64,000 nt of DNA from an uncultured Acidobacteriota bacterium (GTDB lineage Bacteria; Acidobacteriota; Vicinamibacteria; Vicinamibacterales; UBA2999): assembly GCA_963779175.1 (NCBI GenBank), contig CAVZXA010000003.1, positions 257,551 through 321,550 of the forward strand. The letters are read 5' to 3'. The number at the start of each line of letters is the position of its first letter. Positions within the stretch are counted from its first letter, which is position 1. Positions 1 to 63,102 of the stretch are shown piece after piece. The position numbers and the translations under genes were made by a program. A model generated the notes under the pieces. The model saw nothing but the letters and a program-made list of their open reading frames with translations, did no database searches and was not told the origin of the DNA.

Positions 1-1140
1 TACGACGGAGGCAGGCCATGGCGAAACGTAGCATGTTCGTGGGGATGGATGTCCACAAAGACTCGATCGACATCTCCCTGGCCGAAGACGGGCGAGAGGG
101 CGAGGTCCGCCACTACGGAGGCATTCCGGGCGATCTCGAAGCGCTGGCGAAAGTGCTGAAGGCCCTGCGGGCGCCGACGCGGCGCCTGCGCTTCGTGTAC
201 GAGGCGGGCCCGTGCGGCTTCGGCATCTATCGCTACCTGACGAGCCAGGGCGAGGAGTGCGTCGTCGTCAATCCATCGAGCATGCCGAAGCGCAGCGGCG
301 ACCGGATCAAGACGGACCGGCGCGACGGCGACGCCCTCGCACGGCTCCATCGCGCCGGCGAGCTCACGGCGATCTACATCCCGACCGACGCCGATGAAGC
401 GATGCGCGACCTGGTGCGCGCGCGGGAAGATGCGGTCGGCCTCAGCACGCAAGCCAAGCATCGGCTGAAGGCGTTCCTGCTCCGCCAGGGCCGGCGCTAT
501 CCGGGGCGGGCCGGGTGGACGCAACCGTATCGCCGGTGGCTGGCCGATCTCAGCTTCCCACTGGCACCCCAGCACATCGCGCTACAGGAGTATCGCGACA
601 CGATCGACGAGACCGAGCGGCGCGTCGAGCGCCTGACGGAGCAGCTGCGACAGCACACGCCCGCGTGGCGCTGGACCCCGGTGGTGGACGCCTTGCAGGC
701 CTTGCGTAGCGTCTCGTTCGTGACCGCCGTCGGTCTCGTCGCCGAAGTCGGCGACATCCGCCGCTTCGACCACCCGCGGCAGCTCATGGCGTTTCTCGGC
801 CTTGTGCCGTCGGAGTACTCGAGTGGACCGAGTGTCCGGCGCGGCGGGATCACCAAGGCCGGCAACCCGCATGCGCGGCGGCTGCTCGCCGAGGCCGCGT
901 GGGCGTATCAAGGCGTCCCGCGCATCGGCCGGCAGATGCTGTATCGCCAAGAAGCGCTCCCGAAGGCGGTCTGCGACATCGCGTGGAAGGCGCAACTGCG
1001 TCTGACGTCCCGTTTCCGCAAGCTCGTGGCCCGCGGCAAGGCGAAGCCGAAGGTCGCCACCGCCGTCGCCCGTGAACTCACCGGCTTCATCTGGGCGATC
1101 GCCCGGGAGGTGCGACCGCCGGCGGCGTAAGCCCGCGCGA
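1..1140 (+). mobile_element. IS110-family insertion sequence. The left end lies outside the window and the right boundary is unresolved, somewhere in 1131-1440
   Basis: It carries the intact IS110-type transposase ORF at 18-1130. Only 17 nt precede the start codon, so the 5' non-coding end is cut by the window edge. IS110 elements lack classical terminal inverted repeats, so the ends cannot be called by eye. Confidence 0.6.
18..1130 (+). CDS. IS110 family transposase (DEDD-type)
   Basis: This is an intact 370-aa ORF. The N-terminus MFVGMDVHKDSIDISL... is typical of the IS110 DEDD/RuvC-like domain. The C-terminal block ...GGITKAGNPHARRLLAEAAWA... is typical of the 'Transposase_20' domain. Confidence 0.92.
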   Translation: MAKRSMFVGMDVHKDSIDISLAEDGREGEVRHYGGIPGDLEALAKVLKALRAPTRRLRFVYEAGPCGFGIYRYLTSQGEECVVVNPSSMPKRSGDRIKTDRRDGDALARLHRAGELTAIYIPTDADEAMRDLVRAREDAVGLSTQAKHRLKAFLLRQGRRYPGRAGWTQPYRRWLADLSFPLAPQHIALQEYRDTIDETERRVERLTEQLRQHTPAWRWTPVVDALQALRSVSFVTAVGLVAEVGDIRRFDHPRQLMAFLGLVPSEYSSGPSVRRGGITKAGNPHARRLLAEAAWAYQGVPRIGRQMLYRQEALPKAVCDIAWKAQLRLTSRFRKLVARGKAKPKVATAVARELTGFIWAIAREVRPPAA

Positions 1141-4298: not shown

Positions 4299-5717
4299 CT
4301 ACGGGCTGGCAGTCAGCGCCGCGATGACGTCGGCGGCAGAATACGCTGTGGCGCCGGGACGCAGGAACCGGCCCACGCCGGCGAGGTCGTCGCCCATGGT
4401 CACAATCGGCGGCTCTTCCAGCCGCCCGGCGCGTATCTGCGGCAGGCCCACGGTGGCGAGGAGCGCATTGCAGATACAGGCGCGGCCGACCGTATCGGCA
4501 CCGTCGCCACCCTTGGATATGTAGACGTTCACGGGCTCCGACGGACAACGGAATCGGATCGTGCCGTCGTCGTCCGTGTAGGCCTCGCGCAGATAGCCGA
4601 GATCGCAGATGCGGGGCCGGGCGGCCAGCACGCCGGCGTCCGAGAGCGTGCCAGGCAGGCTGGCGACCTTGAACGGAAATCCCGTGGGTGAAGCGACGGC
4701 GTTGGTCACCACGTCGGTCGTGGCCCTCCCGCACCTGTGTCGAGCAGCGCCTGCCGGATGTCATCGCGCAGGCCCGACTCCGCGCACATCGCAAACGCCG
4801 TGCCCACCTGCACGCCTTCGGCGCCAACCGCGAGCGCCTCGCGCACGCCGTTCGGGCGTGCCGGAGCCGCCGGCCAGCCAGAACGGCAGGCCGAGCGCCT
4901 TCAGCTTCTCGAGGTTCACGACATCACGTGGGCCGTAGACCGGCTCTCCGCGTTCGTTCAGCTGAAGGGCCCCGCGCGGCGGCGCGTTGTGGCCGCCGGC
5001 CGTCGGCGCCTTCGACGATGAAGCCGTCGACCGTGCCGTTGGCGCGCTTCGTGAGGCTCAGCGCCAGCACGTCCGAGGCGATGATGGCCAGGAACTTCGG
5101 CCGCGTCAGCGGCGGCAATGCCGAGCCGACGAACTCGCGCGGATCGAACGACAGCTGCACGGCATCGTCGGCGCTGGCGCCACTGACCGTCAACGGATAG
5201 GTGGCCGGCTCGTGGGTGACGAAGCGATCGAGCACGCCCGGAATCTTCATCGGGATGCCGGCGCCCATCAGCACGTAGTCGACGCCGGCCAGCATCGCGC
5301 CGTAGATCGACGGCAGGTGCGGCGTCTGGATCTTCTCGAGGTAGTTGATGCCGACGGGATTCGCCGTGGCCCTCGCGGGCCAGGAACACCTCGACGAAGT
5401 TCGCCACCATCACGAGCGCCTGCCACTCGGCCGATGGCGAGGCTGACGGCATCGGCACCGCCGCGAACGCGTCGCGGCGTGCCTTGCCGCCGGGGATGTA
5501 GTAGCGCGCCAGGATGGTGGCTGCCAGTTCCGGCACCGGGAACGCCGTCAGGGCTCGGCGCATGTGGCCCACCGGGATCGCCCGTCTGCAGGCGGCGCGC
5601 CAGCACCTGATCGAGCGCCGTGCCCTGACGACGCCGAGTTGTCCGAGGGCCGACACGCGTCTGCGCCAGGCGCCAGTGCGAGATGCCGACGCCCATGCCG
5701 CCCTGGATGATCACCAC
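4299..5717 (-). pseudogene. Nitronate monooxygenase / 2-nitropropane dioxygenase-like FMN oxidoreductase, multiple frame breaks
   Basis: The N-terminus MVIIQGGMGVGISHWRLAQ lies in ORF 5268-5717. The middle MLAGVDYVLMGAGIPMKIPGVLDRF...DGFIVEG lies in ORF 4924-5295. The C-terminus VTNAVASPTGFPFKV...ICNALLATVGLPQ lies in ORF 4299-4712. The pieces are collinear but in different frames. Confidence 0.8.
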
Positions 5718-12102: not shown

Positions 12103-13623
12103 CTAGTGTAGCCCTCTCCCTTGGACGCCGGGTCCCGCCGCGGCGTCCCGGCGCCAGGCGCGCCAGAGCGGCGGCGCCGCCAGCAGGAGGGCACACACGG
12201 CCAGCAGCGCCCCGGCGATCGGGCGCGTGACGAGTGTGGCCCAGCCGCCGTCGCCCACCGCCAGCGCCCGCCGCAGATGCATGTCGGCCGCCGGTCCCAG
12301 CATGAAGCCGATCATCACCGGCGCCAGCGGACACGCGACCCGCCGCAGGCCGAGACCGACCAGGCCGATGACGACCAGCGCGAGGATGTCGCCCGAGGAA
12401 CGATGCACGCTCCACGCGCCAACCGTCGCCACGACGAGGATGCCGCCGTAGAGCCACGGCGCCGGGATGCGCAGCAGCAGCACCCACAGGCGCACGAGCG
12501 GCAGGTTGAGCACCAGCAGCAGGACATTGCCGATGTAGAGACTCGCCAGCAGCGTCCACACGAACTCGGGCTCGCGCTCGAAGAGCAGCGGTCCGGCCTG
12601 CAGGCCGAACTGCTGGAACGCGGCGAGCAGCACGGCGGCGGTCGCCGAGGCGGGCAGCCCCAGCGTCAGCAGCGGCACCAGCGTGCCGGCGGCCGAGGCG
12701 TTGTTGGCGGCCTCCGGGCCGGCGACGCCTTCAATCGCGCCGCTCCCGAATTCCTCCGGCCGGCGTGCGAGGCGTTTCTCGACGGCGTACGAAAGCAGCG
12801 TGGGCAGTTCTGCGCCACCGGCGGGCAAGGCGCCGAGCGGAAAGCCGATGACGGTGCCACGCAGCCACGGCTTCCACGACCGCGCCCAGTCGTCGCGCGT
12901 CATCCAGCGCGTGCGCTCGAGCGGCAGCACCGCGTGGCCGGCCGGTGGCCCGGCGGCGAGCGCCAGGGTCTCACCGACGGCGAACAGGCCGATGGCGACG
13001 ATCGTCGGGTCGAGTCCGTCGAGCAGGTACGGCACGCCGAAGGTCAGGCGTGCCTCACCGCTCAACCGATCGATGCCGGCCAGGCCCAGCAGCACGCCCA
13101 CGAAGAGGCTGAGCAGGCCAGCGGTGCGCGAGTCGCCGAGCAGCGTCGAGGTGGCGATGAACGCCAGCACGATGAGGGCGAAATACTCCGCCGGGCCGAA
13201 GGCGAGGGCGAGCCGCGCCATCGCCGGCGCACTCACCGTGAGCAGCAGCGTGCCGAGCGTGCCGGCAACGAAGCTGCCGATGGCGGCGGTGGCCAGGGCC
13301 GCGCCGGCGCGGCCGCGGCGCGCCATCTGATGACCCTCGAGCGCGGTCACGATCGTCGAGCTCTCGCCGGGCGTGTTCAGCAGGATCGACGTCGTCGAGC
13401 CGCCGTACATCCCGCCGTAGTAGATGCCCGCGAACATGATGAAGGCGCTCGTCGGGTCGAGGCCGTAGGTGGCCGGCAGCAGCAGCGCGACGGTGAGCGC
13501 AGGGCCGATGCCGGGCAGCACGCCGACGGCGGTGCCGAGAGTGACGCCGAGCGCGCCCCAGCCGAGATGCGCCGGCGTGAGCGCCTGCACGAAACCGTCT
13601 GAGAGCGCCGCGAAGGCGTTCAC
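12103..13623 (-). CDS. tctA: Tripartite tricarboxylate transporter, large permease TctA
   Basis: The product has a GTG start and is [50 protein letters not shown]...[22 protein letters not shown].... It is polytopic throughout. The GTG start overlaps the upstream stop codon as GTGA at 13620-13623. Confidence 0.9.
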
Positions 13624-14957
13624 CGCGGCCACCCCCCGAGCGGCAGCGGCACGCCGAGCCCGGCCGCGAACACGATCGCGATGACGACCGTCACGGCCAC
13701 CCCGACGCCGACGTTGCGCGCGTGACGGCGGCTGCCGAGCGCTGCGGCGCCGGCGGTGAAGACGAGGGTCGCGGTGATGACAAATCCCAGCAGCGGCTGG
13801 AGCACCGCCTGCAGCAGCAGGGCGCCGGCGATGAGCCCGACGCGGGCGTGTGCGCCGGGTGCGCCGGGCATCGCCGGAGCGCCTCGACGCTGCCACGCGA
13901 GGGCCAACATCAGCACCGCGGTGAAGGCCAGCGCGAGTGCCGGCGCGGTGGCGGAGGTCGGTGTCCACGAGGTCGCGGGCGTGGCCCGGCCCTGCGCGAG
14001 TCTCGCCAGCACCGCGTGGACACGTGCCTGTTCGGCCAGCAGGAACTGGCGGAACGCCGGTCCGTCGAGGTACTGGTCGGTCCAGCCCGTGCGGGCCAGC
14101 GTGTCGCGCCAGGCGGCGCTGTCGACCGCGACGCGGACCCGCGCGGCGAGCGCGGCAGCCTCGGCGTCGCTGACGCCGGGCGGCGCCACGACCGCCCGCC
14201 AGTTGGCGAGGTCGAGTGGCACGCCGGCCTCGCGCAGCGTCGGCGCGTCGAGTTCGGCCACGCGTGTGGGCGAAGAAATCGCCAGGGCGCGCAGTTGTCC
14301 GGCGCTGATGCTCTGCGCGAACTCGCCGAGGCCGCTCACGCCGGCCGTGACCTGCCCGCCGAGCAGCGCCGCCAGCGCTTCGCCGCCGCCCGAGAACGCC
14401 ACGTAGTTCACATCGGCGGGAGAGACGCCGATGGCCTCGGCCATCAGCCGCGCCAGCAGGTCGTCGGTGCCGCCGGCCGAGCCGCCGCCCCACGAGACGG
14501 CGCGCGGCGCGGCACGGAAGGCGGCGAGCAGGTCCTGCAGCGTGCGGTGCGGCGAGCCGGCCGGCACCACGATCACTTCGTGTTCGCCGGTCAGGCGCGC
14601 GATTGGCGTGACGTCGGCCAGCGAGACCACCGACTGCGTGGCGACGATGCCGCTCACCATCACGAGCCCGGTCACCAGCAGCGCGTCATCGCGGCCGCGA
14701 TCGGCGCTGGTGAAGCGCGCCAGGCCGATCGTGCCGGCCGCCCCCGGCACGTTCTCCACCTGCACGTTCACGGGCGGCGTGAGCGCGGCAAACGCGCGCT
14801 GCAGGGCCCGGGCGGTCTGGTCCCAGCCGCCGCCGGGCGCGGCCGGGGCCACGATCGTGATCGACTGCGCCGCGGCTGTCCTCGGGGTCGAGACGGTGGC
14901 CGCGACCAGCGTTGCCGCGAGCACCAGCACGCGGGCGACAGCGCGACGCTCGGGCAT
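13620..14957 (-). CDS. tctC: Tripartite tricarboxylate transporter substrate-binding protein TctC, continuous with a C-terminal TctB-like 4-TM segment
   Basis: A signal peptide plus the Bug/TctC-like body are present ([20 protein letters not shown]...[15 protein letters not shown]...[20 protein letters not shown]). The last roughly 120 aa are hydrophobic and resemble the small TctB subunit ([18 protein letters not shown]...[24 protein letters not shown]). The ATG at 14957 is preferred over the GTG at 14978. Confidence 0.8.
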
Positions 14958-14999
14958 CAGGGCGCGATTGTAGTGCACGGGCCTCGGCGGCCGGCGCTA

Positions 15000-15200
15000 G
15001 TGTCCCGGAGCCGATGTTCGCTGACATGCTCCGGGCGGGGCATCCCGCGTCCCACCCCACGACGCAGAGGACGCGTCGCGGGGGCCCCGGCTCGCGGCGT
15101 TGCTTCTCCCTCGAATATTCTCGATATTCTCGGTCGTCGCGCCTGGCGATCCGGGCGCCGCGCCCGGATCATTTGTCACCGAACTTCGGCTCCGGGACAC
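15000..15200. mobile_element. MITE-like non-autonomous element, copy 1 (201 bp)
   Basis: The terminal inverted repeats are gtgtcccggagccgatgttcgctgaca (15000-15026) and tgtcaccgaacttcggctccgggacac (15174-15200). The interior is near-identical to copy 2 at 24008-24166, apart from a 42-bp extra segment. There is no coding capacity. Confidence 0.8.
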
Positions 15201-15212
15201 TAGGATCGCCGG

Positions 15213-16127
15213 ATGCCGACCGCCCGCTATCTCCACTACGACGTCTTCACCTCGCGCCCGTTCGAGGGCAACCAGCTCGCCGTGTTCCTCGACGCGCGCG
15301 GCCTCGAGACGCGCGACATGCAGACGCTCACCACCGAGATGAACTTCGCCGAGAGCACCTTCGTGCTGCCGGCCGAGTCCGCCGACACCGACATCCGGAT
15401 GCGCATCTTCACGCCGGCGCGGGAGATGCCGATGGCGGGACATCCCACCATCGGCACCACCTTCGCGCTGGCCTCGCTCGGCGTCATTGCGCCGCCGCGC
15501 GCGCGCTGGATGTTCGGCCTGAACGTCGGGCCAACGCCGGTGGCGCTCGAGTGGGGCACGAACGGTCTTGCCGCGGCGTGGATGGATCAGGGGCGGCCCG
15601 AGTTCCGTGTGAGCGGCGGGCCCGGCGCCGAGGTGGTGGCGGCCATCAACGGCGATCTGGCGGCGTGGACGTCGACCGGGCTGCCCGTCGAGGAAGCGTC
15701 GTGCGGCGCGGCGTTCTTCTACGTGCCGCTGGCGACGCGGGCGGCCGTCGATGCGTGCGATCCGGACGGCGCGAAGATGCGGCGGCTGACGAGTGCGTTT
15801 GCCGGGGCCCACATCGGCGTGTTCGTGTTCTCGGCCGAACCGGGGCCCGACGGCGCTACGGTCTACAGCCGGATGTTCGCGCCGGAGGCCGGCGTGGTCG
15901 AAGACCCGGCGACCGGCGGGGCCAGCGGACCGCTCGGCGGGTATCTGGTGCGCCACGGCGTCGTGTCGCTGGCGGACGCCGGCACCATCGTGAGCGCGCA
16001 GGGCGTGAAGATGGGCCGCCCGAGCCGCGTGCACGTGCGCGTCGAGGCGACCTCACCCGCTGATATTCGCTGCGTCCACGTGGGTGGCACCGCCGTCCGC
16101 GTCGGTGAGGGCACGATCACCTGGTAG
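15213..16127 (+). CDS. PhzF-family (phenazine biosynthesis-like) isomerase
   Basis: This is an intact 304-aa ORF: MPTARYLHYDVFTSRPFEGNQLAVFLDARGL...MNFAESTFVLP...HPTIGT.... This is a typical PhzF/DAP-epimerase-fold signature. Confidence 0.88.
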   Translation: MPTARYLHYDVFTSRPFEGNQLAVFLDARGLETRDMQTLTTEMNFAESTFVLPAESADTDIRMRIFTPAREMPMAGHPTIGTTFALASLGVIAPPRARWMFGLNVGPTPVALEWGTNGLAAAWMDQGRPEFRVSGGPGAEVVAAINGDLAAWTSTGLPVEEASCGAAFFYVPLATRAAVDACDPDGAKMRRLTSAFAGAHIGVFVFSAEPGPDGATVYSRMFAPEAGVVEDPATGGASGPLGGYLVRHGVVSLADAGTIVSAQGVKMGRPSRVHVRVEATSPADIRCVHVGGTAVRVGEGTITW

Positions 16128-16151
16128 TTGTCACTCGACTTGTCGGTGGTC

Positions 16152-16226
16152 GGGTCAGACCCCATTCTTGACTGGGCCAGACTTCGCGGCGATTGGTCTG
16201 GTCCAGCCCAGAATGGGGTCTGACCC
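16152..16226. terminator. Long imperfect hairpin between convergent genes (candidate bidirectional terminator or REP-like element)
   Basis: The left arm gggtcagaccccattct... (16152-16182) pairs with the right arm ...agaatggggtctgaccc (16196-16226). The outer 17 bp are perfectly complementary. It lies between the phzF-like stop (16127) and the pdxH stop (16242). There is no clear U-tract. Confidence 0.45.
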
Positions 16227-16241
16227 CAGACCCCGTGACAG

Positions 16242-21617: not shown

Positions 21618-23184
21618 ATGCGACTTGCGCTGGCCGCGCTCTGCGCGGTGCTTGCCGGCACGCTCACGCTGACCGCACAGTCGCCCGCGATCGACGCGGC
21701 GTGGCAGGCCTACTGGCGCGCCGACAGTCCGAAAACCGCGTCTGGCGCCGCCGCGACCCTCGTGAAGGCCGGTGTCAGCTTCGATGACGCCTGGTCGCGG
21801 CTGCGACGGGGGCGCACCTACGGCAAGGCGCAACCCGGAGAGCGCAGCCTGCGCGCCACCGCGCCGAGCGGCGCGGCCTACGACAACGTCGTCGACATCC
21901 CGGCCGAATACGACCCGGCGCGCGCCTGGCCGGTGCGCGTGCAGTTGCACGGCGGCATCATGCGGCAGAACCCGGAGGAGGGCCGGCGCCGGCGCGGCAA
22001 CCGCCTCCCGGGGGAACCGCAAATCGTCATCCAGCCGTTCGGCTGGAACGAGGCGGCGTGGTGGCATGCGCCGCAGGTCGAGAACATCCTGTCGCTGGTC
22101 GATCGCGTGAAGCGCCAGTACAACGTGGACGAGTCGCGCCTCTATCTGACGGGCACCTCCGATGGCGGCACCGGCACCTATTACCTGGCGATGCGCGAGC
22201 CGACGCCGTGGTCGTCATACCTGCCGCTCATCGGCCACCTTGGCGTGCTGTCGAATCCCTCCACCGGCGCCGACGGCGAGCTGTTCGTCTCGAATCTGGT
22301 GAACAAGCCGTTCTTCGTCGTGAACGGGATGAACGACCCGCTGTACCCCGCGGCCCGCGTCGCCCCGTACCTGGAGGCGTTGCAGACGGCCGGCGTGTCG
22401 CTGGTCTTCCGTCCGCAGGCTGAGCGGCGGCCACGACACCAGCTGGTGGGAGGCGGAGCGCGATCTCTACGAGCGGTTCGTGCACGACCATCCACGGGTG
22501 GCGCAGCCGGCGCTCCTGTCGTGGGAGAGCGAGCGCACCGACCGCTACAACCGCGTCCACTGGCTCGTCATCGACGCCCTCGGCGCGCGGCCGAGTGACG
22601 TGGCGCTGGCCGACACCAACACGGTGACCGAGCGTCGCGAGCCCGACTTCGGCGTGCGGGGTGATGCGAAGAAGGACAAGGGCACGCGGGTCGTCGAGGT
22701 CGTGGCCGGCACTGACGCGGCCACGATGGGCATCCGGCCCGGCGATCGGATCCTCGACATCGATGGACGACCGGTGGCCGACATGCAGGCCATCATGGCG
22801 GCGTTCGCGCAGAACACCGGCCCGCGCATCGCGTTGGTCGTCCAGCGCGGCAGCGAACGGCTATCGCTCAGCGGCCCGTTTCCGCCGTCGCCCGGCTCGG
22901 GCGCTGAACGCCGGATCTTTGCCCGCCGTCAGCCGTCGGGCCGCGTCGACGTGGTGCGCCGCGGCAACACCTTCGAGGCGCGCACGCGCGGGGTGACCGC
23001 GTTCACGCTGCTGCTCTCACCGGACGTGGTGGACTTCGCGCGGCCGGTGGTCGTGACGGTGAATGGCCGGCCCGTGCACGACGCCGTGGTACCGCGTGAC
23101 GTGGCCACTCTCATGACCTGGGCGGCGCGCGACAACGACCGGACGATGCTCTTCGGCGCGGCCCTGCCGGTGGTCGTGCCATGA
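21618..23184 (+). pseudogene. Secreted alpha/beta-hydrolase (esterase/depolymerase-like) with a C-terminal PDZ domain, one frame break near 22425
   Basis: It has the signal peptide MRLALAALCAVLAGTLTLTAQS and the nucleophile elbow LTGTSDGGTG (GxSxG). The downstream frame (ORF 22480-23184) continues with GGHDTSWWEAERDLYERFVHDHPRV and a PDZ-like block VVEVVAGTDAATMGIRPGDRILDIDGRPV. Confidence 0.75.
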
Positions 23185-23210
23185 TGTGCCGCCCCTCTCA
23201 AGGAGACCGT

Positions 23211-24008
23211 ATGCGCAGCGAACGCCGGTGGCAGTGGTGCACGCTCGGCTTGGTGGCGGCGGTGCTGGTAGTCGGGGCGGCGCAGGGTGGCGCGCAGACG
23301 GCGCTGCGGCTGCGCGGCCAGGCGCTGGCGGCGTCGGGCAGCGGCGTGCCGGCGTCGATTGAGCTCGAAGCCGTCTACGGCTTCCGTGGCCTCGATTTCG
23401 TCGGCCAGAAGACGTTTGCGACCCGATCGAACGACAAAGGGCAGTGGTCGGTGCTCGGTGTCACCTCCGGCGCCTGGGTATTTGCGGCGCACGCGCCAGC
23501 CTACCTGCCGCAGGTGGTGCTGCTGCCCGTGCAGTTCACGCAGAGGAACCCGGCCAGCGCCACCGGCGGACAGCTGCCGTGGGAAGTCGGCTTCGATCTG
23601 ACGTCGCGCGACGCCCATCCGGCGCTCAGCGCCGCGGCCGATGCCGCGCTGGCGGGCAGGCGCGGCGAGGTGGCCGCGCACCTGGCCGCGGTGTTCGAGA
23701 CCGGCGAGGCCGAGACGCTGGTCGCTGCCGGCGAGATCGCCCTGTATGCCCGCGACGCCGGCCTGGCGCGGGCGCTCTTCGACCGTGCGCTCGCCAAGGC
23801 GCCTACGAACGGTCGGGCGCGCCTGGGTCTGGCGTCGGCGGCGATGCTCCTGGGCGCGTGGGACCGGGCGTCGAAGGAGCTGTGGTCCGCCCGCGAGGCG
23901 GGCGTCTCGCCCAAGCTCTCTCGCGCCGTCGGCGCGGCGATCGCCGAACTGCAGCGGATCGCCGTGCCGCAGGACGGCAACTTCGCCTGTCCCGGCCCCG
24001 GCTGCTAG
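23211..24008 (+). CDS. Hypothetical secreted protein (carboxypeptidase-regulatory-like N-domain plus TPR-like helical C-domain)
   Basis: The likely start is MRSERRWQWCTLGLVAAVLVVGAAQGGAQ. It contains a beta-rich segment (KGQWSVLGVTSGAWVFAAHAPAYLPQVV) followed by a helical Ala-rich repeat region. The stop codon TAG at 24006-24008 sits exactly at the edge of MITE copy 2. Confidence 0.55.
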   Translation: MRSERRWQWCTLGLVAAVLVVGAAQGGAQTALRLRGQALAASGSGVPASIELEAVYGFRGLDFVGQKTFATRSNDKGQWSVLGVTSGAWVFAAHAPAYLPQVVLLPVQFTQRNPASATGGQLPWEVGFDLTSRDAHPALSAAADAALAGRRGEVAAHLAAVFETGEAETLVAAGEIALYARDAGLARALFDRALAKAPTNGRARLGLASAAMLLGAWDRASKELWSAREAGVSPKLSRAVGAAIAELQRIAVPQDGNFACPGPGC

Positions 24009-24166
24009 TGTCCCGGAGCCGAAGTTCGCTGACATGCTCCGGGCGGGGCATCCCGCCTCGCGGCGTTGCTCCTCCCTCGAATATTCTCGATATTCTCGGT
24101 CGTCGCGCCTGGCGATCCGGGCGCCGCGCCCGGATCATTTGTCACCGAACTTCGGCTCCGGGACAC
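24008..24166. mobile_element. MITE-like non-autonomous element, copy 2 (159 bp)
   Basis: The ends are gtgtcccggagccgaagttcgctgaca ... tgtcaccgaacttcggctccgggacac. The interior matches copy 1 (…catgctccgggcggggcatcccgc…ctcgaatattctcgatattctcggtcgtcgcgcctggcgatccgggcgccgcgcccggatcattt) but lacks the 42-bp segment. Confidence 0.8.
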
Positions 24167-24180
24167 CAACCGCGTACCGC

Positions 24181-24405
24181 CTACCGGCGGCGCAGCAGCA
24201 CCGCCGCCAGCGCCGCCAGGCCGCCGGCCAGCACCACGCCGCGCAGCACCCGGAAGAGGCTGAGCACCCAGGCGATTCCGAGACCGAGCGCCGGCCACTG
24301 CACCCACCAGTGGCCGGGTGAGGTCAGCAGGTTGATCACGAACAGGAACGCCAGGATGAGCGGCGCTTTCACGAGGAACTTCGCGGCCCGGAGCGTGTGC
24401 GTCAC
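24181..24405 (-). CDS. Small 2TM-domain membrane protein
   Basis: This is a 74-aa ORF with two hydrophobic helices: KAPLILAFLFVINLLTSPGHWWVQWPALGLGIAWVLSLF. Confidence 0.6.
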   Translation of the reverse strand: MTHTLRAAKFLVKAPLILAFLFVINLLTSPGHWWVQWPALGLGIAWVLSLFRVLRGVVLAGGLAALAAVLLRRR

Positions 24406-37780: not shown

Positions 37781-37800
37781 GGCCTAACGGCTGGCGGCTA
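37771..37800. repeat. Short GCGGCTAG-type intergenic repeat (single arm)
   Basis: The sequence tagcggctagggcctaacggctggcggcta lies across the module C DUF1592 stop codon (37778-37780) and the first 20 nt after it. It is related to the strings at 43483, 62942 and 63058. Confidence 0.5.
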
Positions 37801-37831
37801 AACGAGACCACGGTTCAGGGATATCGAGCTC

Positions 37832-40985: not shown

Positions 40986-43482
<2,497 letters not shown>

Positions 43483-43483
<1 letters not shown>

Positions 43484-43515
43484 CGGCTAGCGGCTGGGGA
43501 CTAGCGGCTGAGATC
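43483..43515. repeat. Short GCGGCTAG-type intergenic repeat (three tandem half-units)
   Basis: The sequence tagcggctagcggctggggactagcggctgag lies immediately after the module D DUF1592 stop. Confidence 0.5.
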
Positions 43516-62941: not shown

Positions 62942-63076
62942 GCTAGCGGCTGGCGGCTAGTCTTCACGCAGTCACGCTGCGGGGCGGCTTCCTTTCGGGG
63001 GCCGCCCCGTTTCTTTTCTCCGTCGCGACGGGCGGCGGATGCCGGGCTGCCGTGTGTCTAGCCGCCAGCCGCTAGC
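62942..63076. repeat. 135-bp element bounded by a perfect 19-bp inverted repeat of the GCGGCTAG-type motif
   Basis: The arm gctagcggctggcggctag (62942-62960) is the exact reverse complement of ctagccgccagccgctagc (63058-63076). The intrinsic terminator lies inside the loop. A further cgccagccgctgg copy follows at 63077-63089. Confidence 0.7.
62980..63019 (+). terminator. Rho-independent terminator downstream of the TonB-dependent receptor
   Basis: The 13-bp GC-rich stem cggggcggcttcc / ggggGccgccccg (62980-62992 pairs with 62997-63009, two G-U pairs) has the tetraloop tttc. The T-rich tract tttcttttct follows at 63010-63019. Confidence 0.85.
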
Positions 63077-63102
63077 CGCCAGCCGCTGGCCTGAAGCTGC
63101 GC

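Follow-up and report, generated by a model that had tools for sequence, protein, structure and literature searches.

Correia (NEMIS) elements of Neisseria are repeats of about 100–155 bp with 26-bp terminal inverted repeats (TIRs), which duplicate a TA on insertion and whose length variants differ by an internal segment. They are present in hundreds of copies per genome and lie beside genes, the transcription of which they can alter, and they form long hairpins in mRNA. In REP sequences a hallmark is a conserved tetranucleotide at the foot of a hairpin. More than half of prokaryotic genomes contain MITEs, about 90% of which are intergenic (PMC11602168). Among the insertion sequences, the IS630 family duplicates a TA target (PMC2170065), and a preference of IS630 for TA within CTAG is given in the title of Tenzen and Ohtsubo 1991, which is cited in PMC2170065.

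The repeat described here was found in a 64-kb window, that is, the whole stretch of DNA that was analysed. The host is a bacterium of the Vicinamibacterales (Acidobacteriota), and those PhzF homologues of the window's gene that bear taxonomic names are labelled as Vicinamibacterales or Acidobacteria MAGs. The Vicinamibacterales are abundant, little-cultured soil Acidobacteriota, and no description of their mobile elements was found in the literature. The repeat is a genuine, recently mobile MITE from a poorly studied phylum, ordinary in type and belonging to an undescribed family; string searches of the literature with its end motifs returned primers only, and searches for MITE literature on Vicinamibacter or Bradyrhizobium gave nothing relevant.

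Organization of the Repeat

The sequence-only reading had described two MITE-like repeats about 9 kb apart, with a 42-bp segment in the first copy only, and alignment of the two copies agrees with both their positions and the segment. The parts of the element are as follows:

15000..15200, plus strand: MITE copy 1, 201 bp, between the divergent tctC(B) and phzF genes
24008..24166, plus strand: MITE copy 2, 159 bp, between the convergent genes for the TPR-repeat protein and the 74-aa two-TM protein
15000..15026, plus strand: left TIR of copy 1, GTGTCCCGGAGCCGATGTTCGCTGACA
15174..15200, minus strand: right TIR of copy 1, the inverted terminal repeat
15049..15090, plus strand: 42-bp segment of copy 1 only, which has its own hairpin in the predicted fold
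15111..15133, plus strand: low-GC core of copy 1, 39% GC, a tandem ATATTCTCG (two units) containing the palindrome GAATATTC
24077..24099: the same low-GC core in copy 2
15148..15170, plus strand: internal hairpin of copy 1, a perfect 11-bp stem GATCCGGGCGC-C-GCGCCCGGATC
24114..24136: the same internal hairpin in copy 2

Apart from the 42-bp segment, the two copies are identical except for two substitutions, T/A at position 16 of the TIR and T/C in TTGCTYCTCC. A 21-nt terminal motif, GTGTCCCGGAGCCGAWGTTCG, stands in inverted orientation exactly at both ends of each copy; these four occurrences are the only ones in the window, against an expectation of 0.00 in dinucleotide-preserving shuffles. 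The 27-nt TIRs match at 25 of 27 positions in copy 1 and at 26 of 27 in copy 2, and their similarity extends to about 40–47 nt at 86–89% identity with a 2-nt indel. Each end of the element reads (T)GTGTCCCGG and is made up of a conserved terminal GTGTC[C/G]C block and a subterminal CGAAGTTCG block. The end sequence of the element can also be rendered as a GTGTCCCGGAGCCGAAGTTCG-like TIR.

Copy 2 agrees with its own reverse complement at 73% over 167 nt, that is to say, the whole element is an imperfect palindrome. The predicted RNA folds of the two copies have energies of −106 and −130 kcal/mol, with z of about −10 relative to shuffled sequence, and the hairpin potential of the element at the site of copy 2 is about 80 base pairs (about −106 kcal/mol). 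In addition, each arm of the window's element can form an 8-bp stem, CCCGGAGC/GCTCCGGG, as read directly from the letters. The AT-rich core noticed in the sequence-only reading is indeed low in GC (39% for TCGAATATTCTCGATATTCTCGG against 71% for the window); it extends over 15111–15133, one base longer than had been proposed, and is better described as a tandem 9-mer with an 8-bp palindrome.

With lengths of 159 and 201 bp, both copies are too small to encode a transposase. Two copies are documented in the 64 kb, and a sensitive self-search of the window returned no further copies or fragments. A candidate for a third, degraded copy at 12103–12165 (CTAGTGTAGCCC), at the boundary between the tctA stop and a flavoprotein gene, was rejected as a chance similarity.

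Genes Beside the Two Copies

Each copy is flanked by two genes:

13620..14957, minus strand: tctC-tctB fusion gene, flank of copy 1
15213..16127, plus strand: PhzF-family gene, flank of copy 1
23181..24008, plus strand: gene for a TPR-repeat protein, with the target of copy 2 in its TAG stop
24181..24405, minus strand: gene for a 74-aa two-TM protein, convergent with the TPR gene

The gap between tctC and phzF is 255 nt long. The first base of copy 2 is also the G of the TAG with which the TPR gene ends, and the far end of this copy is 14 nt from the stop of the convergent membrane-protein gene. These coordinates agree with the divergent 255-nt gap and the copy abutting a TAG stop that had been reported from the sequence alone.

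Orthologous Sites without the Element

Orthologous loci were fetched by exact-protein look-ups of PhzF homologues. The closest relative recovered (L013, NCBI GCA_031404695.1) has about 94.6% DNA identity to the window, and a second one, L009, has 88–92%. At the position of copy 1 (site 1), L013 reads ...GGCCGGCA-CTAG-GATCGCCGGATG... (GGCA-CTAG-GATCG; GGCACTAGGATCGCCGGATG) with no element, while the window reads ...GGCCGGCG-CTA[201 bp]TAG-GATCGCCGGATG... (GGCG-CTA[element]TAG-GATCG). The difference between the filled and the empty site is exactly the element plus the duplicated TA/CTAG, with flanks that can be aligned without a gap. Site 1 lacks the element in every relative recovered, namely L009–L014, L041–L047 (wastewater lineage) and L048. 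In BLAST comparisons of L009–L013 with the window, the alignment is interrupted at 14999/15200 or a few bases away, and its two parts overlap there because TAG is duplicated.

The position of copy 2 (site 2) is covered by L009 as the sole relative, and it is also without the element. The L009 alignment breaks here too, at 24019/24177; the spacing between the two stop codons is 21 nt in L009 and 172 nt in the window, and the left junction ...GGCTGCTAG is common to both. It was also observed that site 2 of L009 might be read as an excision footprint (CTAGTCGGCCCGGGGCAC against the collapsed GTGTCCCGGGACAC), with 11 of 15 matches; this is suggestive, and chance similarity between GC-rich sequences is equally possible.

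Since the element is absent at the orthologous positions and the junctions are precise, both copies are insertions made after the split from relatives with 88–95% DNA identity, so that the mobile MITE-like element proposed from the sequence alone is borne out. Between the two copies there are 2 substitutions over 159 nt, as compared with the 5–12% by which the host DNA differs from the element-less relatives, and so small a difference between the copies indicates that the insertions are recent. Furthermore, the empty sites rule out a duplicated regulatory region that is conserved in position.

Insertion at CTAG and Its Duplication

The bases next to the element that bear on the target duplication are listed below, without strand:

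14998..14999: left TA of the duplication of copy 1, which together with C14997 and the element's G15000 reads CTAG
15201..15202: right TA of the duplication of copy 1, which also forms the first two bases of TAGGAT (15201–15206)
24006..24007: left TA of copy 2, which is part of the stop codon (TAG) of the TPR gene; L009 has an identical stop
24167..24169: CAA in place of TAG on the right of copy 2, next to a spacer unlike that of L009

Copy 1 is bordered by CTA...TAG and copy 2 by CTA...CAA, in keeping with what had been noted. When they were checked for a target-site duplication, copy 1 was found to have the form C-TA-[element]-TA-G, where L013 has CTAG once; that is, the element at site 1 was inserted precisely into a pre-existing 5′-CTAG-3′, and this motif now stands on both sides of it. 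The left junction of copy 2 also lies inside a pre-existing CTAG. Here the duplication is intact on the left and reads CAA on the right, and since the spacer next to this CAA is unlike that of L009, the right-hand duplication has been mutated or lost.

The CTAG specificity of the insertion is real. The window contains 19 CTAG against 61–170 expected, an under-representation of 3- to 9-fold in DNA of 71% GC, among a total of 621 TA dinucleotides, and both insertions are at CTAG; all the intact flanks of the related elements described below are CTAG as well. The remaining CTAGs may to a large extent lie at stop codons and gene boundaries, which would steer insertions to such places. With G as its first base and C as its last, the element restores CTAG on either side when it goes into C-TA-G, and in this way the TAG stop of the TPR gene at site 2 and, at site 1, the TAGGAT box are preserved.

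The change from one CTAG in the empty site to CTAG...CTAG in the filled site fits three readings alike at site 1: (a) a 2-bp duplication of TA by an element with the ends G...C; (b) a 4-bp duplication of CTAG by an element with the ends TG...CA; and (c) a duplication-free insertion 3′ of CTAG by an element that brings its own 3′ CTAG. These are equivalent at this site because CTAG is a palindrome. The degraded right flanks of four related or own copies (TCG, GAG, CAA and TGG) are informative in this respect: the preceding C is kept in all of them, while the T, A or G varies. This small sample mildly favours a TA duplication, in which the retained C would belong to the element.

A Wider Family with the Same Ends

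Exact-match scans with the end motif were carried out on 185,579 GTDB representative genomes and on the JGI metagenomes, and a degenerate scan on IMG/VR. Among the 185,579 representative genomes there was one match only (L001), a contig of a Myxococcales MAG that bears a solo end with CTAG before it; the ORF beside this end encodes a PLP enzyme and no transposase by Pfam. The JGI metagenomes gave one convincing match (L004), which consists of two tandem hairpins of 76–77 bp, each bounded by CTAG, the first end being that of the window over CTAG + 21 nt. The named homologues of the TolC gene of this contig are from Xanthobacteraceae. CTAG and the 21-nt end are shared by the Myxococcales MAG contig and this soil contig, which is Xanthobacteraceae-like. 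The other metagenome matches (L002, L003 and L005–L008) have neither a preceding CTAG nor an inverted partner and were set aside as chance or coding matches; that of L007 lies within a long ORF with a YVDD motif.

The IMG/VR pattern was TAGTGTCSC-N4-12-GAAGTTCG, in which no inverted partner was demanded, and it returned 26 loci. Most of these were likewise dismissed as chance or coding matches. On the high-GC contigs, however, all the matches preceded by C have an inverted partner end, and complete CTAG-bounded hairpins of 50–125 bp were recognised at L022, L026, L030/L033, L035, L038 and L040. Since the partner is present though the pattern did not demand it, the family of CTAG-bounded hairpins is real. 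Its general form is C|TA|GTGTC[C/G]C, a variable stem with CGAAGTTCG, a loop, the inverse arm and G[G/C]GACAC|TA|G.

The related elements are alike in their ends and different in their interiors, and, by analogy, this is as expected for MITE families that use one transposase. Every short member inspected has a T-rich bulge of 2–4 nt in one arm only. The short members stand in arrays with a semi-conserved spacer of 12–14 nt, and at L035 a single CTAG is common to two adjacent members. The element of the window is a long member with an interior of 105–147 nt and is without such a bulge. The smallest member, L038, is about 50 bp long; members of this size look short for a double-strand synaptic complex and resemble a REP-type hairpin.

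Proposed Mechanism and Its Rivals

Taken together, both repeats are probably non-autonomous MITE copies that were moved in the style of IS630/Tc1 into the TA of CTAG. The enzyme would have been a transposase from another part of the genome, which bound the conserved terminal and subterminal blocks of the ends, and such a two-block end would suit a bipartite DNA-binding domain. A DDE cut-and-paste reaction would then have carried the element to the TA of CTAG, with duplication of these two bases, as in IS630 and Tc1-mariner, and each insertion would have rebuilt CTAG, sparing the TAGGAT box at site 1 and the TAG stop at site 2. Copy 1 has taken the place of the native DNA before the −10-like box of phzF, and copy 2 puts a very stable hairpin between two convergent genes. 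The published IS630 TIR has no sequence similarity to the ends of the element, which is not unexpected in so diverse a family, yet this gives no positive support.

The search for the transposase covered selected window ORFs, the fetched loci, three sequence collections and plasmids. Among the window ORFs selected for Pfam, the only transposase gene is of the IS110 family (3–1130), in line with the earlier remark that none of the window's transposases carries such ends. An autonomous partner was found neither in about 0.5 Mb of fetched loci, which were scanned for TAGTG...CACTA pairs 40–4000 bp apart, nor in the exact-match scans of GTDB representatives, JGI metagenomes and IMG/VR for an element with these ends. 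Plasmid searches with copy 2 and a short family member returned nothing meaningful, and the YSPxLNPxE motif of IS630 is absent from the fetched DNA. Being local or limited to exact matches, these searches are no strong argument that a partner is lacking. Crude motif scans of the fetched DNA also gave no RAYT and, as a weak negative, no Y1-like ORF or HUH motif.

The three readings of the junction correspond to different enzymes. It is unlikely that the MITE owes its movement to a DDE transposase with a 4-bp duplication, that of CTAG in full, be it of the IS5 style or of another TG...CA family. The element proper would then be TGTCCC...GGGACA (14999..., with a shift of one base at each end); site 1 equally fits CTAG[TGTC...GACA]CTAG, and 5′-TG...CA-3′ termini are common among DDE elements. 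An IS5-family element with CTAG on both sides is in fact present in the Vicinamibacterales relative L041 (1101–2060), and the IS5-derived MITEPsy1 duplicates CTAG or YTAA (PMC3189936). However, the ends here are without the IS5-typical GG/GA(AGG), with which both MITEPsy1 (GGAAGGTC) and the L041 IS (GGAAGCTCTGCACAG) start. In addition, the C before the flank is always kept in the four degraded right flanks, a small sample, and the right flank CCAA of copy 2 needs two changes under a 4-bp duplication, but a single one if TA was duplicated in a CTAA target. It is highly unlikely, on the other hand, that the element is a REP/REPIN-like hairpin which an HUH enzyme (Y1, RAYT or IS200/IS605-type) inserted in single-stranded form 3′ of CTAG, with its own 3′ CTAG and no true duplication. 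The long hairpins formed by the whole element and by all its relatives speak for such a route, as do the 8-bp stems to which the two arms can fold and the smallest member of only about 50 bp, and the one-arm bulge, the arrays and the shared CTAGs of the short relatives recall BIME/REP arrays. The arms, however, are inverted repeats of 27–47 nt that are best conserved at their termini like the TIRs of DDE elements, and CTAG stands on both sides, unlike the 5′ GTAG of the described REPs; the element measures 159–201 bp with a complex interior, and the known REP doublets are smaller than this. The lack of a Y1-like ORF in the crude motif search of the fetched sequences also weighs, if weakly, against an HUH enzyme.

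The evidence from the short relatives can be carried further. Members of the family are seen in the Acidobacteriota window, on the Myxococcales MAG contig and on Xanthobacteraceae-like contigs, and it is conceivable, though quite unlikely, that the element of the window is the long form of an undescribed cross-phylum, REP-like superfamily of CTAG-bounded hairpins that are moved as single strands by a CTAG-specific enzyme. Such a superfamily would be defined by the CTAG-TGTC[C/G]C...CGAAGTTCG ends, the one-arm bulge and the BIME-like arrays. The bulge in one arm, the arrays and the 50-bp units are indeed hard to square with classical double-strand transposition of TIR elements. An immobile regulatory or structural region that was copied once, such as a regulator-binding palindrome, an sRNA gene or a terminator, is barely credible. 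There are only two copies, both at gene boundaries, and the interior has a weak TTGCTY-N17-GATATT followed by a GC hairpin and ATTTGT, together with a sub-threshold Rfam match to SorX, all of which speak for such a region. Against it stand the orthologous positions that are empty in every relative recovered, with flanks aligned base for base, the precise CTAG/TA duplication at the junction, and the same ends with different interiors on unrelated contigs assigned to other phyla; nor do consensus scans give a promoter or terminator, or Rfam a family at threshold. It is the empty sites that largely refute this explanation. Movement in the IS630/Tc1 style with a TA duplication is the preferred reading.

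Consequences for the Neighbouring Genes

Two short boxes beside the insertion at site 1 are of interest for the transcription of tctC and phzF, the first of which is:

14967..14972, minus strand: −10-like TACAAT of tctC, a putative promoter box 9 nt upstream of the tctC ATG

This box is within a 25-nt block beside the tctC start, which is outside the element and invariant in all relatives. The −10-like TAGGAT of phzF (15201–15206) also lies outside the element, 6 nt upstream of the ATG, and relatives have TAGGAT or TACGAT at the same distance. Neither tctC nor phzF has a Shine-Dalgarno-like sequence, and this fact, together with the conserved boxes, suggests back-to-back putative promoters that would give near-leaderless mRNAs. 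It had been supposed that both promoters must lie in the element or read through it; the position of the two conserved boxes weakens this supposition. After the insertion, tctC retains 42 nt of its native upstream DNA, and phzF retains its −10-like box alone, rebuilt by the TA duplication, with the right TIR now upstream of it.

Neither copy contains a sigma-70-type promoter or an intrinsic terminator by consensus scans, and the proposal that the AT-rich core supplies −10 sequences is not upheld, as no consensus promoter was found there and the best candidate, the hand-found TTGCTY-N17-GATATT, matches at 7 of 12 positions only and was rejected. TTGTCA in the right TIR was considered as a partner of TAGGAT and discarded at a distance of 22 nt, which is too far. 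Rfam gave zero matches at the gathering threshold in the whole window, the best one below it being SorX with 16 bits against 46.6 (E = 0.19). By analogy with the Correia elements, an effect on termination or mRNA stability at site 2 is possible. Most likely, the element is a selfish passenger, and any effects on neighbouring genes are side effects.

Significance

The current picture of MITE biology is unchanged by this element. Its value lies in the empty sites, which prove cleanly that a MITE with strict CTAG targeting was active not long ago in a genome where CTAG is strongly avoided, and such targeting suggests a way in which insertions may be confined to stop codons and promoter edges. The target-rebuilding ends also show how an insertion can spare a stop codon and a −10 box. 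In practice, the 21-nt end motif is a handle for transposase hunting and for strain typing in metagenomes, and the pair of filled and empty strains is a natural test of the effect of insertion on the expression of tctC and phzF.

Relation to Described Elements

REP, REPIN and BIME sequences are like the present element in being extragenic hairpins with a tetranucleotide at the foot, and its short relatives share with them an asymmetric bulge and arrays with linkers. They differ in that their 5′ tetranucleotide is GTAG, while the element described here has CTAG on both sides, long TIR-like arms and an apparent duplication at its filled sites. MITEPsy1 of Pseudomonas syringae is similar in its size of about 100 bp, its TIRs and the CTAG (or YTAA) on both sides (PMC3189936); its ends are of the GGAAGG type of IS5 and its partner is ISPsy2, whereas the element here starts with (T)GTGTCCC and no partner was found for it.

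The MITEs derived from IS630/Tc1-mariner, for example Stowaway of plants, are alike in being small, non-coding and bounded by TIRs, with duplication of a TA target, and the TA-in-CTAG preference of IS630 is the junction seen at site 1. The difference is that the TIR is unrelated and that no partner with the TIRs of the element was found; 2-bp and 4-bp duplications are also indistinguishable here. From the Correia elements the present one is separated by phylum and by the absence of any sequence similarity; no IHF site or outward promoter was detected here, and two copies are documented. Nevertheless, they offer the best functional analogy for both insertions, that of copy 1 into a promoter region and that of copy 2 into a convergent 3′ region.

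Other inverted repeats and gene repeats in the window

Besides the MITE, the window holds a second inverted-repeat structure that is bounded by TA/CTAG; its arms (GCTAGCGGCTGGCGGCTAG), built from GCGGCTR heptamers, stand on either side of a terminator-like hairpin that lies between convergent genes. The heptamer motif has 7 matches against 0.1 expected, and further sites follow two other genes; these structures may be another small repeat family, mobile or structural. Downstream of phzF, a palindrome of about 80 bp (beginning GGGGTCTGACCCC) lies between the stops of phzF and the convergent PNPOx gene. Different TA-flanked palindromes take the same position in three relatives, that is, at L013 10044-10093, L014 10926-11059 (where they stand in tandem) and L048 3185-3262. 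This intergenic position looks like a hairpin-element hot spot or, alternatively, a bidirectional terminator that evolves fast.

Inverted repeats and the IS110-family gene in the window
3-1130: IS110-family transposase gene (DEDD_Tnp_IS110 + Transposase_20), at the window edge
1479-1520 / 1645-1686: 42-nt inverted repeat
16149-16227: palindrome between phzF and the PNPOx gene
37783-37801 and 43479-43504: further heptamer sites
62942-63090: heptamer inverted repeat

In the roughly 610 nt after the IS110-family gene (1131-1739), no gene is obvious. This region includes the 42-nt inverted repeat and two CTAG sites, and the non-coding end of the IS110-family element could lie within it.

At about 25300-47000, four paralogous gene units, each about 4.1-5.8 kb long, stand in tandem, with 61-91% DNA identity among them. 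By comparison with the relatives' loci L014 and L041, their predicted products are a PSD/PSCyt (planctomycete-type cytochrome domain) protein, an HXXSHH protein and an ankyrin-repeat protein; within the stretches fetched, each of these two loci has one unit.

CTAG sites and CTAG-bounded elements

CTAG is strongly avoided in the whole window, with 19 sites against 61-72 expected under Markov models and 170 expected from base composition. In the relative GCA_018000455.1 (L041), an IS5-family element with the TIRs GGAAGCTCTGCACAG has CTAG on either side; therefore, transposons from another family that target CTAG are also present in this order. The L041 lineage appears to have a degraded tct operon, since its TctC/TctB gene is shortened to 203 aa and it lacks a called TctA gene.

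CTAG-bounded elements in other sequences
L041 1040-2200: IS5-family element (DUF772 + DDE_Tnp_1, 319 aa)
L035 3850-4171, minus strand: hairpin array, IMG/VR contig
L038 around 4760-4911: hairpin array, IMG/VR contig
L004 114-279: hairpin array, JGI metagenome contig that looks Xanthobacteraceae-like

Each array consists of two to four different CTAG-bounded hairpins, whose orientation is given by a T-rich bulge on one arm, and neighbouring hairpins are either separated by a semi-conserved spacer of 12-14 nt (roughly CAACNCATNTGATT) or have one CTAG in common. This organisation is similar to that of BIME arrays.
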